48,589 nt of DNA. Origin: Dehalococcoidia bacterium (GTDB lineage Bacteria; Chloroflexota; Dehalococcoidia; Lucifugimonadales; UBA3495). The stretch lies in the NCBI GenBank assembly GCA_022821365.1, contig JAJEDS010000190.1:1-48589 (forward strand), read 5' to 3'. Under the pieces are notes generated by a model. That model was not told the origin of the DNA. It ran no database searches and was given only the letters and a program-made list of their open reading frames with translations. Position 1 is the first letter of the stretch. Each line of letters begins with the position of its first letter. Made by a program: the position numbers and the translations under genes. Positions 2,175-41,115 of this stretch are shown in pieces.

Positions 2175-2229
2175 GTGGTGAAAAGGCGCCCGTATCAGTG
2201 CTTTGGGCTCGAAAAACGGAGAGGCGGTT

Positions 2230-3639
2230 ATGCCCCACCAGGAAGACGTCCGGTTGATGGCCCACTTGATGAGACGCGCAGGCTTCGGCGATCCCCGCGA
2301 GGAACTGGAGAAGCGTGTCTCCAAAGGCTACGAAGCCGTGGTCGAGGAGCTGCTTTATCCGGAGCGGCAGCCGGCTATTGACGAAGAACTGCTGTACCGG
2401 TACTTCCCGGGTTATGAGGGGGCCGGTGCGCCGCCAATTAACCAAGCCAACTGGGTGTACCGGATGATCAACACCAGGCGGCCCCTGGAAGAGAAAATGG
2501 CCCTCTTCTGGCACCAGTTGTTCGCCACCGGCAACTCCAAGGTGGACAATCCGCCGGAGATGACTCGCCAGATTGCCATTTTCCGGGAGCACGGACTGGG
2601 CGCCTTCCGCGACCTGCTGGTAGAAGTTGCCAAGTCGCCCGCCATTATCTTCTGGCTGGACAACCACGGGAATCGCGACGGCGCCATAAACGAAAACTGG
2701 GGGCGGGAGCTGCTGGAGCTTTTCTCCATGGGGGTCGGAAACTACTCCGAGGACGATATCAAGGAAGCAGCCAGGGCCTTTACCGGCTGGACCATTGCTC
2801 CCAAGATTCCCCGCAATCCCTATGGTCGTTTCCACTGGCAGTTCGAGTACAAACCTGAGAATCACGACAGTAGAGAAAAGACCTTTCTGGGGCATACCGG
2901 CAACTTCAATGGCGAAGATATCGTCGACATTATTGTCGACCAGCCGGCTACGGCCCGGTTCCTGGCCCGCCACCTCTACCGCTTTTTCGTCGCGGACGAG
3001 CCCCACGTGTCCACCTGGAACATTACCCCACCCGTTGACCCTGAAGCCATCGAGTTCCTGGTGAACGTCTACAATGAGTCCCGCGGCGACATCCGGTCGA
3101 TTTTGCGAGCGCTGTTCAATTCACACTACTTCAAGAATGCCCGGTTCGCCCGGGTGAAATGCCCCGCTGAATTGGTCGTTGGCGCCGTGCGTTTGGCTGG
3201 CAACTATAACGGCTTCAAGCCGGGATTCAACAACCTGGCGCTGGAATGCGGCTGGCAGGGACAGGAGCTTCTCAATCCCCCCAGCGTGGAGGGTTGGCAC
3301 GCCGGCTCCGAATGGATCGACCCCGGCGTCTTGATGCGCAGGGTTAATTTTGCTGCCAGGGTATTTGGAGATGTCTCGCTGCCCGGTGTGCAGGCTATCA
3401 TCAAACGGGTGGTGGTCAATGCCCATGGGGATCCTTCTCCCCAAGCGATAGTGGCAGCCTGTCTTGATGCCATGGGACCACTGGAAGTCGGCGAAGCGAC
3501 TTACTCGGAGTTGATCGCCCATGCCGAAAGGTGCGGAGACCTGGCCTGGGGCACCAGCGAGGAACTGCTTGCTACATTGCGGAATGTGAGCAAGATATTG
3601 ACCTTGATCGCAGCCTCCCGAGAGTTTCAGTTTGCCTAG
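2230..3639 (+). CDS. DUF1800 family protein (copy 1)
   Basis: The ORF is open from TTG 2203. ATG 2230 follows GGAGAGG. The N-terminus LMAHLMRRAGFG and the motifs MALFWHQLFAT, ENWGRELLELFSMGVG and FTGWT are typical of DUF1800. It is a paralogue of 38538-39956. Confidence 0.85.
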   Translation: MPHQEDVRLMAHLMRRAGFGDPREELEKRVSKGYEAVVEELLYPERQPAIDEELLYRYFPGYEGAGAPPINQANWVYRMINTRRPLEEKMALFWHQLFATGNSKVDNPPEMTRQIAIFREHGLGAFRDLLVEVAKSPAIIFWLDNHGNRDGAINENWGRELLELFSMGVGNYSEDDIKEAARAFTGWTIAPKIPRNPYGRFHWQFEYKPENHDSREKTFLGHTGNFNGEDIVDIIVDQPATARFLARHLYRFFVADEPHVSTWNITPPVDPEAIEFLVNVYNESRGDIRSILRALFNSHYFKNARFARVKCPAELVVGAVRLAGNYNGFKPGFNNLALECGWQGQELLNPPSVEGWHAGSEWIDPGVLMRRVNFAARVFGDVSLPGVQAIIKRVVVNAHGDPSPQAIVAACLDAMGPLEVGEATYSELIAHAERCGDLAWGTSEELLATLRNVSKILTLIAASREFQFA

Positions 3640-3642
3640 AAG

Positions 3643-3692
3643 GCATTAAAGAGTCCTTCCCCCTTGACGGAGGAAGGTCAGGATGGGGGTGA
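3643..3692 (-). repeat. Intergenic hairpin repeat, family B (reverse orientation)
   Basis: The reverse complement reads acccccatcctgaCCTTCCtccgtcaaggGGGAAGGactctttaatg. This matches the family pattern: C-rich arm, GTCAA loop, G-rich arm, GGACT-tail. Confidence 0.55.
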
Positions 3693-3711
3693 TAGCTCGC
3701 TGTCGGGAGAT

Positions 3712-3760
3712 TCCCCCTCACCCTAATCCTCTCCCACCAGGTGAGAGGGGACTTATTCAG
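3712..3760 (+). repeat. Intergenic hairpin repeat, family B variant
   Basis: ccccctcaccctaatCCTCTCcCACcagGTGaGAGAGGggacttattcag. It shares the leader (cacccta) and the tail (GGACTTATTC) with 4958-5003 and 11319-11362. Confidence 0.55.
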
Positions 3761-3799
3761 ACCTTCCTTAGCAAGCGCCTGCAACTGATGTAGAGGGAT

Positions 3800-4687
3800 A
3801 TGAAGATGGCATCTACCTATAAGGACCCCGTGCTGGTGGTACTGGAGCTGACCGGGGCTAACGATTACCTCAATACCATCGTTCCCTACAGCGATCCCCT
3901 GTATTGGGATAACCGACCCAAAGTTCATATCTCGGAAGACCAATTGCTTCCCATAGATGACCGGTTGGCATTCCGTTCTGATATAGAGCCGCTGAAAGAA
4001 ATCTACGACCAGGGCGACATGGCAATCATACACGGTATCGGGTTCGAAAATTCGCCCCGTTCCCATTTCCGCGCCATGGACATCTGGCACACTTGCGAGC
4101 CGGATTCCATCGGGATTGATGGCTGGCTGGCCAAGGTGGTCCGGGACCTGGATCCCGGCGGCGAGAACGTGCTCAAGGGAGTGAGCCTGGGACAGGGCCT
4201 GCCTCGGGCGCTGGCGATGAAGGGCGTCCCCGTCACTTCGGTCAACAACCTCCCTACCTACGGCGTGTTGTCGTCAAATCCGGCTATCACCTCCGAGCGG
4301 GACCGGACGCAGCTATTGGAAAGTTTTGCCCGCATGTATGCTCCCGCCATCGGCACCGGACCGACCATGGAATACCTGGGACAGGCGGGACGGGATGCGT
4401 TGAGGGGAGCCGACATCATCCGGGTTGCTCCCCAGGCCTATTCTTCAACCGTAGAGTACGCCAATAACCCCATCGCCAGGCGCCTCAGGGATGTGGCCCA
4501 GGTGCATCTGGCCGGCCTGGGCACCCAGGTGTTTTACACTGCCTACGGGTCCTTCGATACCCACTATGACCAGATGGGATCACATACCAAACTCTGGATG
4601 GACATTTCCGTTGCCATACGAGACTTCTTCGCGGACCTGCGTGAGCACGGCGCCTCGGAAGAGGTCGTCATCATGCTGTTCAGCTAG
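3800..4687 (+). CDS. DUF1501 family protein (copy 1), N-terminal 295 codons ending at an in-frame TAG
   Basis: ATG 3800 follows GAGGGA. DUF1501/sulfatase-like motifs are present (SHFRAMDIWHTCEP, GLPRAL, FDTH). The ORF stops at TAG 4685-4687, where the paralogue at 39979-41115 has Glu in the motif TEFGRR. Confidence 0.8.
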   Translation: MKMASTYKDPVLVVLELTGANDYLNTIVPYSDPLYWDNRPKVHISEDQLLPIDDRLAFRSDIEPLKEIYDQGDMAIIHGIGFENSPRSHFRAMDIWHTCEPDSIGIDGWLAKVVRDLDPGGENVLKGVSLGQGLPRALAMKGVPVTSVNNLPTYGVLSSNPAITSERDRTQLLESFARMYAPAIGTGPTMEYLGQAGRDALRGADIIRVAPQAYSSTVEYANNPIARRLRDVAQVHLAGLGTQVFYTAYGSFDTHYDQMGSHTKLWMDISVAIRDFFADLREHGASEEVVIMLFS

Positions 4688-4942
4688 TTTGGGCGCCGCG
4701 TCCGCGACAACGGCACTGGCACCGACCACGGAGCGGCCGGGGCGGCCTTCGCCATCGGAGACCGGGTGAACGGGGGAATGTATGGGACCTATCCGTCGCT
4801 GAAACCGGGCGATCTCATTGAGGGCGACCTGGCGCCCAATTACGATTTCCGTGGCTTTTACTCCACCCTGGCGGAAAAGTGGCTGGGCCTGGACCCGGTT
4901 CCCATCGTAGGCGGACACTTCGAGCAAATGGCATTCGTATAA
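4688..4942 (+). pseudogene. In-frame continuation of DUF1501 copy 1 (C-terminal 84 codons downstream of the TAG)
   Basis: The same frame reads FGRRVRDNGTGTDHGAAGAAFAIGDRVNGGMYGTYPSL...IVGGHFEQMAFV, then TAA at 4940-4942. It is colinear with the paralogue's FGRRISDNGSGTDHGAGGIAFVVGEHVKGGIYGEYPSL...IVGGSFEKVNFL. Confidence 0.75.
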
Positions 4943-4957
4943 TTGTGAGCGGGGGCG

Positions 4958-5003
4958 CCCCATCCTAACCTTCCCTCGTCAAGGAGGAAAGGACTTATTC
5001 GAG
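4958..5003 (+). repeat. Intergenic hairpin repeat, family B
   Basis: gccccatcctaaCCTTCCCTCgtcaagGAGGAAAGGacttattcgag, lying between DUF1501 copy 1 and NHL copy 1. Confidence 0.55.
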
Positions 5004-5014
5004 GGAGACTGATT

Positions 5015-14338: not shown

Positions 14339-15445
14339 ATGTACCGCAGCTTCACCATCAAAAATTTCCGGTGCTTCGACGAGTTAACCGTGGAAGGCAT
14401 GGGCCGAATAAACCTGATTGCGGGCAAGAACAACGTGGGGAAGACAGCGTTGCTGGAGGCGTTGTGGGTGCATAGTGGGGCCGTAAATCCGGATTTGGCC
14501 GTGAGAATCGATTCTTTCAGGGGATTGGAACAGCAGACTCTGGAGAGCTTTCTCGGAAGTTTGTTCAGGGGATTTGACCGCGAACTGACCATAGAAATAT
14601 GCAGCACAGGTGATTGGGAGGACTCACCTTTCTACCATAAAATCTATTTCGAAGACGGTTCATCCTTCGAGATGCCATTGGCTGGTCCTGAAAATGACCA
14701 GCTATCACTATTCCAGAATTCTTCTATTGCAATGCGTGCAAGCCAGGTAGTCGTTATGGAATACTCTGATGGTATGGGCGAGAAGACTATCGCCAAAGGA
14801 AGGTTAGTTGCCCGCCAGTTGGGTCCGGTCCAAGATGTAGGTCTAGAGGTAGCTTTCGAAACAGGCCAACCTTTACAAGACCATGCGAGAGCAATATTTC
14901 TCGCAGCGAGACGAGCATCTGTAGGTCTGGAAGACGTGAATCGCTACAGCGAACTGGAAGTCAATGGCGAGGCGGACGGCGTACTTGAAATCCTGCAATG
15001 CGTTGAACCGGAACTGAAGAGGCTTGCGGTTGTTTCTGCAAGGCAAGCTCCGAGCATTTACGCTGATGTTGGCAGAGGGAGGCTTATTCCCATTCAACTC
15101 TTAGGGGACGGAATGTCTCGCATCCTATCTCTGGCACTGGCCATTGCCAGTGCCCCAGAAGGCAATGTGATGGTGGACGAAATCGAAAACGGCGTCCACC
15201 ACTCGGTGATGGAAAAGGTGTGGAAGGCCATTGGGGCCTTTGCCCGCAGTTATGACGTGCAGATTTTTGCCACCACCCACAGCTACGAGTGTATCGGGGC
15301 GGCCTACCGGGCCTTTGAGTCGGACGAGGAGGACGAACTGCGGCTGTTTCGTATTGAGCGGAGCCCTGAAGGCAAGTATAGGGCGGTGAAGTTCGACCGG
15401 GAGCGTATCGGATCTGCTTACCAGTTCAATATGGACGTGATTTAA
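14339..15445 (+). CDS. ABC/SMC-like AAA ATPase (AAA_15/AAA_21 type)
   Basis: ATG 14339 follows GGGAG. The ORF is open from 14222, so an earlier start is possible. Motifs: Walker A GKNNVGKT (14423-14446), signature-like LGDGMSRIL, Walker B VMVDEIENGVH (from 15167) and H-loop-like ATTHS (from 15269). Confidence 0.8.
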   Translation: MYRSFTIKNFRCFDELTVEGMGRINLIAGKNNVGKTALLEALWVHSGAVNPDLAVRIDSFRGLEQQTLESFLGSLFRGFDRELTIEICSTGDWEDSPFYHKIYFEDGSSFEMPLAGPENDQLSLFQNSSIAMRASQVVVMEYSDGMGEKTIAKGRLVARQLGPVQDVGLEVAFETGQPLQDHARAIFLAARRASVGLEDVNRYSELEVNGEADGVLEILQCVEPELKRLAVVSARQAPSIYADVGRGRLIPIQLLGDGMSRILSLALAIASAPEGNVMVDEIENGVHHSVMEKVWKAIGAFARSYDVQIFATTHSYECIGAAYRAFESDEEDELRLFRIERSPEGKYRAVKFDRERIGSAYQFNMDVI

Positions 15446-16023
15446 TGGTGCAATGGGGTCAGGGCAGAGAAATGCCTGCCGTCAGTAGCGGCAGGCAACT
15501 GCTTGTCGAGGGGCGGGAGGAAGTACAGTTCTTTCAGGCTTTTTTAAGACACCTGGGAATAGGCGATATTCAAATACGGGACTATGAAGGAAAAGACAAT
15601 CTTCGCAGGTATCTCCTTTCCTTTACCGGCCTCAATGATTTTGTCCATGTTCGATCTGTCGCCATAGTCAGAGACGCCGATGACAACGCTCCCTCGGCGC
15701 TGCAGAGCGTCCAGGACAGTTTGCGGAACGCAGAGTTATCCGTGCCCAGGGGATTCACCACCCCGTCGGACGGTCCCCCGCGAATATCCATATTCATCAT
15801 GCCCGACAACCACAGCGCCGGCGCCCTGGAACAGCTATGCCTTTCCGCGCTGGCGGACGACTCCGCAATGTCCTGCGTGGACGATTTTCTTCGATGCGTC
15901 AACGACAGGGTTGTAGACCCGCCGAAGGACCACCAAAAAGCCCGCATCCACGCCTTCCTGGCATCCCGCCAAGACCCTGAATTACGCCTTGGGGAGGCCG
16001 CCCAGCGGGGCTACATCCCCTAG
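15445..16023 (+). CDS. Small TOPRIM-like protein (DUF4435/DUF3226/DUF4276/RloB-like pattern)
   Basis: The ATG overlaps the upstream stop (TAATG at 15443-15447). It has LLVEGREE (Glu codon 15508-15510) and IVRDADDN (DxD, 15673-15684). 192 aa. An alternative start is M10 at 15472. Confidence 0.6.
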   Translation: MVQWGQGREMPAVSSGRQLLVEGREEVQFFQAFLRHLGIGDIQIRDYEGKDNLRRYLLSFTGLNDFVHVRSVAIVRDADDNAPSALQSVQDSLRNAELSVPRGFTTPSDGPPRISIFIMPDNHSAGALEQLCLSALADDSAMSCVDDFLRCVNDRVVDPPKDHQKARIHAFLASRQDPELRLGEAAQRGYIP

Positions 16024-16387
16024 TCCCACCCCTCCTTTGCCCAACTAACCCAGTTCCTTAAATCCCTTTAGCCGCCGCCTGACCCGACCTACGCCCAATT
16101 GGCGCCTCGTCAATGCGCTATTCGACGGGAATTCCTTTTGTTGCTTCCCCCGCGTTGCCTTAACTTATGAACAACCTGCCATAACTGCGGGTGTATAATC
16201 AGATAGTAGCGTCGCCTGTCCCACAATTTGCCCATAATTACGTTTTATCATATGGCAGGCGGCGGCAGGCGGCCACGAAAAGGATTTTTGGCTAGTCGCT
16301 TCTCCCCAACAATAGAAGGGTTTCCGAAGGCAACCCGAGAGCGTCAACCAGTTGAACGTGTTTTCCAGTTCCATTCCCGGTATTGCA

Positions 16388-38537: not shown

Positions 38538-39956
38538 ATGGCTGACCAGCAAGATGTTGCCTTGATGGCCCACCTGTTGCGACGCGCCGGTTTCGGCGCC
38601 AGCCGCGATGAGATTGAGGCCAAAGCTGCCCAGGGTTACGACAGCGTGGTTGACGAACTGCTCAACCCCGACACCGTGCCCAATGTGGAAGAAGACCTGC
38701 TGATGCGGTACATGCCGGCCTATCACGAAGCGGCCGCCATCGAAACCAACATCCAGGCGTGGGTCTGGCGGATGATCAACACTCCCCGCCAGTTGCAGGA
38801 AAAGATGGCCCTCTTCTGGCACATGATTTTCTGTGCCGGCCACTCCAAGATCGACAGCGGCCAGGAAATGGGTCGCATGATCGCCATGTTCCGGGAACAC
38901 GGCATGGGCAACTTCCGCCACCTGCTGTGGCTGCTGTCCACCAGCCCGGCCATGGTCTACTATCTGGACAACAGCGAAAGCCACAAGACCAACCTGAACG
39001 AGAATTACGGTCGGGAACTGCTCGAGCTGTTCTCCCTGGGCGTTGGCAAGGACGAAGAGTTCAACTACTCCGAGGACGACGTAAAGGCCTGCGCCCGCGC
39101 CTTCACCGGCTGGAACATCGCTCCTTCCTACCCGCCCTTCCCCTATGGCCGCAGCCCCTGGGAGTTCCGTTTCGATCCGGCCGACCATGACGACAGTGAG
39201 AAGACCTTCCTGGGCGAGACCGGGAACTTGAATGGCGATGACGTGCTGGACATCATTGCCAGGCAGCCGGCCACCGCCCGCTTCCTGGCCCGCCACCTTT
39301 ACAACTTCTTCGTCGCCGACGACGTGCAGATTCCCGCCTGGCGCCTTACTCCCCCGCGGGACATGAAGGCCATCGAGGCCATGGAGAAGGCTTACTTCGA
39401 CTCCGGCTACGAGATCAAGGCCATGCTGGAAGTCCTTTTCAAGTCCGACTTCTTCAAGGCTGAGGACGTTCGCTACGCCAAGGTCAAGAACCCCGCCGAG
39501 ATGGTGGTTGGCACCATGCGCCTTGTGGGCGAACACCGGGACATCCAGCCCGGTCTGTTCGAGTTCTCCCAGGAGCCCAAGTACATGGGAATGGACCTGA
39601 TGAATCCCCCCACCGTTGAAGGCTGGCATACCGGCCGCGAGTGGATTGACAGCGGCACCCTGGTGGAGCGCATCAACTTCGCCGCCGACCTGATGGGCAA
39701 CACCGAACTCCCCGGCGTTCAGTCCCTGGTGGGTCGCCTGATGGCCCAGGGCGACACACTGACCCCCGACCAGTTCGTGGCAGGCTGCCTGGACCTGACC
39801 GGCCCGCTGACCGTTACGGATGATACCCTGCAGCAGCTTCGGACCCACGCCTCCAAGGACGGCGACTTGAGCACCGCCAACCAGGCCGAGTTTTCCCGCC
39901 GCGCCGGCGAGATGTTCCAGATGATTGCCGCTACGGCAGAGTTCCAGTTCGAGTAA
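38538..39956 (+). CDS. DUF1800 family protein (copy 2)
   Basis: AAAGGAGG lies upstream of the ATG. Motifs: LMAHLLRRAGFG, MALFWHMIF, ENYGRELLELFSLGVG and FTGWN. It is colinear with copy 1. Confidence 0.85.
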   Translation: MADQQDVALMAHLLRRAGFGASRDEIEAKAAQGYDSVVDELLNPDTVPNVEEDLLMRYMPAYHEAAAIETNIQAWVWRMINTPRQLQEKMALFWHMIFCAGHSKIDSGQEMGRMIAMFREHGMGNFRHLLWLLSTSPAMVYYLDNSESHKTNLNENYGRELLELFSLGVGKDEEFNYSEDDVKACARAFTGWNIAPSYPPFPYGRSPWEFRFDPADHDDSEKTFLGETGNLNGDDVLDIIARQPATARFLARHLYNFFVADDVQIPAWRLTPPRDMKAIEAMEKAYFDSGYEIKAMLEVLFKSDFFKAEDVRYAKVKNPAEMVVGTMRLVGEHRDIQPGLFEFSQEPKYMGMDLMNPPTVEGWHTGREWIDSGTLVERINFAADLMGNTELPGVQSLVGRLMAQGDTLTPDQFVAGCLDLTGPLTVTDDTLQQLRTHASKDGDLSTANQAEFSRRAGEMFQMIAATAEFQFE

Positions 39957-39978
39957 TACAGTAGAAGGAGAAGAGACT

Positions 39979-41115
39979 ATGGTTTCTACGCAGAAAGACC
40001 CGGTACTGGCCGTGCTGTCCCTTTCCGGCGGCAACGATGGCCTGAATACCGTGATTCCCTATAGCAACCCCCTGTATCGGGACTATCGCCCCACCCTGGG
40101 TATTCCCGAAGGGCAGATCATTCCCATTAACGACGACCTGGGGTTCCACCCCACCATGGGCCCGTTGAAGAAGTTCTGGGACGAAGGCAAGCTGGCCATT
40201 TTCCTGGGCGTCGGCTACGACAACCCCAGCTACTCCCACTTCCGGTCCATGGACATCTGGCACACCTGCGAGCCCGACAAGATCGGCACCGAGGGTTGGC
40301 TGGGTCGCGTCCTCAAGGAAATCGACCCCAATGCCGAGAACGTACTTTGCGGCGTTAACTTCGGTCGCGGCCTTCCCCGCGCACTGGTGATGGAAGGCGT
40401 GCCCGTGGCCTCCGTCGGCAACCTGGAGACCTACGGCCTGCTGACCGGCATCGACGGCGCGGACCAGCGCGACCAGGCCCTGGACGTCTTCGGTCGCATG
40501 TACTCCCCGGCCATGGGCAGCGGCGCCGTGATGGACTACATCCACAGCACCGGCACCAACGCCCTCAAGGGCGCCGACATCCTGGCCACCGCCCCCGACA
40601 AGTACACCTCCGAGGTCGAGTACTCCAACACCGTCGTGGGCCAGTACATGAAGAACATCGCCCAGACCCATTTGGCCGAGTTCGGCAGCCGGGTGCTCTA
40701 CACCACCTCGCCGTACAACAGCTTCGACACCCACGCCAACCAAGCCTCCCTGCACTCCGGCCTGTGGAGCGACGTGTCCAACAACGTGGACACCTTCTAC
40801 CAGGACCTGCGGGACCATAACGCCAGCGACAACGTCATGCTGCTCATGTTCACCGAGTTCGGTCGCCGTATCTCCGATAACGGCTCCGGCACCGACCACG
40901 GCGCCGGCGGCATCGCCTTCGTTGTGGGCGAGCACGTCAAGGGAGGCATCTACGGCGAATACCCGTCCCTGGAACCCAGCCAGCAGGAAGAGGGCGGCAA
41001 CCTCAAGTACAACATGGACTTTCGCTCCATCTACACCACCGTCGTGGAAGACTGGTTCAAGATGGACGCCCAGCCCATCGTTGGCGGTTCCTTCGAGAAG
41101 GTCAACTTCCTTTAA
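39979..41115 (+). CDS. DUF1501 family protein (copy 2, intact)
   Basis: GAAGGAG lies upstream of ATG 39979. Motifs: SHFRSMDIWHTCEP, FDTH and TEFGRRISDNGSGTDHG. No twin-arginine N-terminus is visible. Confidence 0.85.
   Translation: MVSTQKDPVLAVLSLSGGNDGLNTVIPYSNPLYRDYRPTLGIPEGQIIPINDDLGFHPTMGPLKKFWDEGKLAIFLGVGYDNPSYSHFRSMDIWHTCEPDKIGTEGWLGRVLKEIDPNAENVLCGVNFGRGLPRALVMEGVPVASVGNLETYGLLTGIDGADQRDQALDVFGRMYSPAMGSGAVMDYIHSTGTNALKGADILATAPDKYTSEVEYSNTVVGQYMKNIAQTHLAEFGSRVLYTTSPYNSFDTHANQASLHSGLWSDVSNNVDTFYQDLRDHNASDNVMLLMFTEFGRRISDNGSGTDHGAGGIAFVVGEHVKGGIYGEYPSLEPSQQEEGGNLKYNMDFRSIYTTVVEDWFKMDAQPIVGGSFEKVNFL

Follow-up and report, generated by a model that had tools for sequence, protein, structure and literature searches.

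An in-frame TAG in a DUF1501 gene of a Dehalococcoidia metagenome-assembled genome probably reflects a consensus error or an unfixed minority allele

Introduction

How should an in-frame TAG be read when the gene around it looks intact? The question is raised by a DUF1501 gene near the left end of a 48,589-nt contig (JAJEDS010000190.1) from the metagenome-assembled genome (MAG) of an uncultured marine Dehalococcoidia bacterium (GCA_022821365.1); we refer to this whole stretch of DNA as the window. A preliminary description, made from the letters of the window, had noted that the stop replaces a conserved glutamate codon and had named four possible explanations: a very recent nonsense mutation, an assembly or consensus error or population polymorphism, stop-codon read-through or suppression, and a deliberately split gene. 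Here we weigh these explanations against orthologs of the gene, against a scan of the whole assembly for further premature stops, and against the tRNA and terminator repertoire of the genome.

The assembly totals 3.24 Mb in 379 contigs, of which the window is the longest, and has a G+C content of 60%, an estimated completeness of 83% and a contamination of 2.9%. Related loci come from MAGs of uncultured Dehalococcoidia (Chloroflexota), one of them labeled as SAR202 cluster, and several of their bin names look sponge-derived. The closest relative is called G001 below, and the other of the two closest relatives G012.

Results

A DUF1501 gene is interrupted at a conserved glutamate codon

Translation of the frame yields 295 residues, the TAG, a further 84 residues and a terminal TAA, as the preliminary description had proposed (see Table 1 for the coordinates of all features). 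When the stop was entered as X, the protein aligned by BLASTP from end to end with the intact paralog encoded further downstream in the window (52% identity, E = 2e-153), and the X fell on the Glu of the TEFGR motif of this paralog; the claimed continuity beyond the stop and the claimed position on a conserved Glu were thereby both borne out. The same holds for the proposed single-base change. That is, the codon is GAG in all 11 orthologs from the genus and in 91 of 91 orthologous loci overall, so one base, G to T, separates the assembled codon from that of its orthologs.

Table 1. Features of the window that bear on the interrupted DUF1501 gene
Feature	Coordinates	Strand	Evidence or remark
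DUF1800 gene, upstream partner in a conserved two-gene cassette	2203..3639	+	Pfam PF08811, 341.9 bits; syntenic with G001, 90% nucleotide identity
Short hairpin repeat element inserted between the DUF1800 and DUF1501 genes	3640..3770	.	Gap size and inverted match to a G001 element
DUF1501 gene, whole interrupted frame	3800..4942	+	ATG 3800 to TAA 4940-4942
DUF1501 gene, 5′ part, 295 codons until the premature stop	3800..4684	+	96% protein identity to the G001 ortholog
Premature TAG for GAG (Glu of the SEFGR motif), private G-to-T substitution	4685..4687	+	GAG in 91/91 orthologous loci
DUF1501 gene, 3′ remainder, 84 codons plus TAA, in frame, undecayed	4688..4942	+	Holds the FGRR...GTGTDHG motif
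Second premature TAG in the window, in a small Toprim-type gene (15445-16023)	16021..16023	+	Gene absent from G001
Paralogous DUF1800 gene of the second cassette	38538..39956	+	ORF list; 97% protein identity to the G001 ortholog
Intact paralogous DUF1501 gene, 396 aa, comparison copy of the preliminary description	39925..41115	+	

At the level of protein families, the two parts behave as one gene. Against Pfam DUF1501 (PF07394), the protein with the stop read through obtains 72.8 bits (E = 4e-20) in a single stretch, residues 235 to 336, which spans the stop; taken separately, the 5′ and 3′ fragments reach 26.6 and 23.3 bits, both below the Pfam gathering score of 27 bits. The read-through protein thus resembles the usual Pfam DUF1501/DUF1800 pairing in scoring above the cutoff, in lying directly 3′ of a DUF1800 gene and in having thousands of homologs of ∼378 aa, and the assembled gene departs from that pairing in being interrupted, with each fragment under the cutoff. 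DUF1501 presumably belongs to the alkaline-phosphatase-like clan of Pfam. For the protein encoded here we found no obvious signal peptide and no sequence match in the PDB, either with the single protein or with a profile, and AlphaFold, given a shallow alignment, produced a poor model (pLDDT 45).

The region downstream of the stop shows no decay, in line with the preliminary description. Relative to its nearest orthologs, the gene has 90% nucleotide but 96% protein identity, and all its private codons except the stop are either synonymous or give residues known from orthologs; this includes all six private codons within the 84-codon remainder. Immediately 3′ of the TAG, the local identity with G001 is 1.00. 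Judged by these codons, the gene was under purifying selection until very recently, or is so even now. The truncated 295-aa product, which is predicted to be left without the most conserved C-terminal motif (FGRR...GTDHG), would probably be inactive.

The stop is private to this genome

The two closest DUF1501 orthologs share 96% and 95% protein identity with the interrupted gene, and among ∼450 DUF1501 matches in 60 relatives we found none with an internal stop. Similarly, this genome carries 11 DUF1501 genes, of which the copy at 3800–4942 alone contains an internal stop and the other 10 are intact. A search of 5.8 billion collected proteins gave homologs with lengths of 378 to 380 aa in nearly all cases, none of them at ≥97% identity. 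We found no record of the exact truncated protein, no match in metagenome and genome collections for the exact DNA pattern with either G or T at the site, and, by protein and DNA-pattern searches, no independent assembly of the same species. At its regular 3′ end, the orthologous gene terminates with TAG in 89 of 92 loci.

An expanded cassette with a repeat element

DUF1800 directly upstream of DUF1501 is the typical arrangement of this cassette, met at 2203–4942 and likewise at 38538–41115 and in relatives; within the window, the DNA of the second DUF1800 gene is ∼67% identical to the first DUF1800 region. The first cassette differs in its spacing, as 160 nt separate its two genes compared to 29 to 35 nt in most relatives measured. 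This gap holds the hairpin repeat element, in which positions 3655–3761 form an inverted match (79% identity) to an element located 3′ of the DUF1501 gene in G001; our observations on this element cover positions 3640–3770 and 4945–5010 of the window. The cassette is also strongly expanded in the family: almost every family genome that we searched gave 5 to 16 DUF1501 matches, and one gave a single match. As a separate observation on the same contig, its left edge (36–1187) encodes a reductive-dehalogenase-like protein with Pfam Dehalogenase and 4Fe-4S dicluster domains.

Premature stops are scattered across the assembly

The preliminary description had suggested looking for other in-frame TAGs in conserved genes. 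We scanned all contigs for in-frame stops with coding-like sequence on either side and searched the flanking peptides in G001 and G012; this indeed recovered such codons, and TAA and TGA besides. Because scans based on composition gave many shadow-frame artifacts, real genes were separated from these by codon-difference and amino-acid-composition filters combined with manual reading. Among the genes hit, a glutamate codon is lost in those for RarA, a NorD-like protein and an HTH protein (GAG to TAG in all three) and in a ClpC-like gene (GAA to TAA); glutamine is lost in those for an LLM oxidoreductase and SBP56 (both CAG to TAG) and a methyltransferase (CAA to TAA), tyrosine in the GlmS copy on contig C56 (TAC to TAA), and tryptophan in a phage portal gene (TGG to TAG). 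The RarA, ClpC-like and NorD-like stops are on contigs C65, C327 and C63, the first two of them on the minus strand; nonsense sites outside the window further include, in forward contig coordinates, C56:2373, C106:12631, C107:9014, C123:4205, C178:10266, C182:3633, C74:6464 and C198:6456. The orthologs of nonsense-hit genes are intact in G001 and G012, at local protein identities of 84 to 99%, except for the methyltransferase (76%) and the HTH protein (80%).

For a quantitative comparison, we used reciprocal tblastn against 1.26 Mb of G001, which covered ∼200,000 aligned codons of real-looking genes. Within these, nine premature stops were present in our genome and no convincing one in G001, where three candidates lay 1 to 3 codons from the C-terminus and a fourth in a stop-riddled 5′ region. 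All three stop codons occur among the nine, in place of codons for E, Q, W, Y and G, and at least nine further premature stops were found elsewhere in the genome, outside this comparison. Extrapolating from 9 per 200,000 codons, we estimate that the whole assembly contains ∼40 premature stops. Real-looking frameshifts showed the opposite bias, with about 1 in this genome versus ∼11 in G001. The ∼11 apparent frameshifts of G001 (G001:C5:1-1260000, loci L126-L185) hit genes that are intact in our genome; G001 is probably a long-read assembly, and the two assemblies each show the kind of error to which their technology is prone.

Across the stretches that the window and G001 have in common, 4685 is the sole position with an internal stop in a real gene. 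The second premature TAG lies in the Toprim-type gene; past it, the frame reads ...GYIP*SHPSFAQLTQFLKSL (the asterisk marks the stop), continuing for 15 codons to a TAG at 16069–16071, and the residue lost is probably Trp. We also considered a specific G>T signature of oxidative damage and rejected it: roughly half of the changes are G>T/C>A and half C>T/G>A, as expected from the common precursor codons (GAG, CAG, TGG).

A consensus error or an unfixed allele is the favored origin of the stop

We consider it probable, though far from certain, that the TAG at 4685 stems from a wrong consensus base, or from a minority allele that is not fixed, in a MAG of low quality or low coverage, and that it represents no programmed feature. 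According to this explanation, a single G-to-T substitution would have turned GAG into TAG in this MAG and nowhere else, as one of ∼40 substitution-type premature stops scattered through the assembly, and the predicted DUF1501 protein would be cut short before its FGRR...GTDHG motif. Since the stop at 4685 is one of many across the assembly, a consensus error or captured minority allele is the most likely source, and the 9:1 ratio of nonsense codons to frameshifts speaks for substitution-type errors, or captured minority alleles, in a MAG built from short reads at probably low coverage more than for natural gene decay. We infer that the stop stems from sequencing or assembly and not from a fixed mutation. 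Three further lines of evidence agree: the change is private, with none of the relatives' genes and none of the 10 sister copies interrupted; isolated disruptions are in excess compared to the close relative; and the assembly is fragmented and incomplete. In all these respects, that is, a private one-base change in an otherwise undecayed gene, and many stops of all three kinds with almost no frameshifts, the case resembles the sporadic premature stops of draft MAGs. Some observations pull in the other direction. The site lies deep within the longest contig, away from contig ends, short-read consensus errors at ∼3e-4 per base would be a high rate unless coverage was low, and the repeat element inserted in the cassette could mean that the cassette is really being lost.

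A real and very recent loss of the gene is the main alternative

Such a loss is among the explanations that the preliminary description had listed: a fixed nonsense mutation has just turned this DUF1501 copy into a pseudogene, which is tolerated through ∼10 other DUF1800/DUF1501 cassettes. We regard this as a possibility to be taken seriously, albeit not the likelier one. If real, the event must have been recent, given one base change and no downstream decay, and it would be specific to this genome, at a codon that is a sense codon in the orthologs. Ten intact paralogs are available, and several of the other stops also hit genes with paralogs, for instance glmS and the ClpC-like gene. The widened DUF1800-DUF1501 gap can likewise be read as a sign of a degenerating cassette. 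With one substitution in 1 of 11 copies, an intact 3′ part and paralogs that could compensate, the locus does look like a recent nonsense pseudogene in an expanded family.

What speaks against this alternative is the company that the stop keeps. Dozens of recent nonsense knockouts would have had to strike well-conserved genes in a single lineage at the same time, with hardly any frameshifts alongside them (9 versus ∼1), and the closest relative shows no such nonsense codons. Natural gene inactivation usually gives frameshifts at least as often as nonsense codons, judging by mutation-accumulation studies, and real decay normally brings frameshifts together with further substitutions; here, the changes are almost purely nonsense and fall in conserved genes. 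Strong purifying selection on the gene throughout the branch that ends in this genome is a further argument against it. The earlier notion of a copy on its way to becoming a pseudogene therefore changes its meaning in light of the genome-wide stops: what looked like the fate of a single gene now looks like one instance in an assembly peppered with nonsense substitutions. Whether the stop arose by error or by knockout, the TAG at 4685 is an ordinary stop codon.

In-frame TGA codons point to selenoproteins

A different type of in-frame stop surfaced during the same scan. An MFS transporter gene on contig C24 contains an in-frame TGA (...RLTFGYFV*GYSMSFVN...) that is shared with G012 (G012:C90:123999-127430, L103) at 97% protein identity; this TGA is a candidate selenocysteine codon and probably no defect. 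Further in-frame TGA codons occur in thioredoxin-like UxxC or TUPPF contexts on contigs C44, C47, C211, C308 and C320, examples being FWTYT*INC, WATY*PVC, GSYT*PPF, AY*TLCG and GD*GSCS. ARAGORN located a tRNA-Sec on contig C2. Going by these motifs, the organism appears to be rich in selenoproteins. TGA is also its least used terminator (25%) despite a G+C content of 60%, at which TGA is usually the most used one; heavy use of TGA for selenocysteine may be tied to this low use as a terminator.

Recoding, suppression and gene splitting are very unlikely to account for the stop

Of the four options listed in the preliminary description, recent nonsense mutation and error or polymorphism survive, with the latter favored, and suppression and a split gene fall away. 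Reassignment of TAG to a sense codon was considered as well and discarded: it would require TAG to be depleted as a terminator. However, of 465 genes confirmed through their G001 orthologs, 210 (45%) end in TAG, which makes it the commonest terminator, ahead of TAA (140) and TGA (115).

We regard it as very unlikely that full-length protein is still made across the TAG at 4685, whether with the help of a suppressor tRNA or through read-through that depends on the codon context. As this explanation would have it, the sequence 3′ of the stop is undamaged and keeps the frame, and a suppressor tRNA might be missing from a genome that is 83% complete. Against this, none of 41 tRNAs found by ARAGORN, along with one tmRNA, carries a CUA anticodon in this 83%-complete genome, TAG serves to end nearly half of the validated genes, and the stop is conserved in none of the 91 orthologs. 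Moreover, since the premature stops vary in both the codon and the residue lost, neither one suppressor nor one reassignment can account for all of them. We give even less credence to the broader idea that the many in-frame stops of this genome are real and are tolerated through unusually leaky termination or general nonsense suppression; if it were true, full-length proteins would still be made from the glmS copy on C56, rarA and the DUF1501 gene.

A deliberately split gene, whose two polypeptides assemble after separate synthesis, is highly improbable. Both parts are undecayed, but no start codon lies at or close to the stop: the nearest in-frame one beyond it is a GTG at 4766, 27 codons downstream and already past the FGRR...GTDHG motif. 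None of the relatives carries the gene in split form, and homologs are of nearly uniform length. Pyrrolysine can be dismissed as next to impossible, even though the codon is a TAG and the organism makes use of another recoded amino acid, with a tRNA-Sec and many TGA codons in UxxC motifs. The locus does resemble the methylamine methyltransferase genes of Methanosarcina and of some Firmicutes and Deltaproteobacteria in that a TAG lies within the frame of a gene that is otherwise intact. It differs from them in that pylS, pylD and tRNA-Pyl were not found and in that the TAG is unconserved, doubles as the main terminator and replaces a conserved Glu, the orthologs having neither TAG nor Lys at the site. 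The search for pyl genes that had been proposed earlier gave a best PylS match of 21.8 bits here, compared to a cutoff of 178, with 0 of 17 genus genomes passing it, and no match to PylD in this 83%-complete genome.

Discussion

The finding is an ordinary one and reveals no new way of reading the genetic code. Its significance is chiefly one of caution, as a lone in-frame TAG in an intact-looking gene readily invites ideas of pyrrolysine, suppression or a split gene. Gene calls, pseudogene counts and metabolic reconstructions derived from this assembly will under-report intact genes, and the affected genes include a glmS copy, rarA, the ClpC-like gene and several members of the DUF1501/DUF1800 family. 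If the stops were real after all, they would amount to an unusual burst of nonsense-only inactivation in a lineage of Dehalococcoidia whose near relatives include several apparently sponge-derived MAGs.
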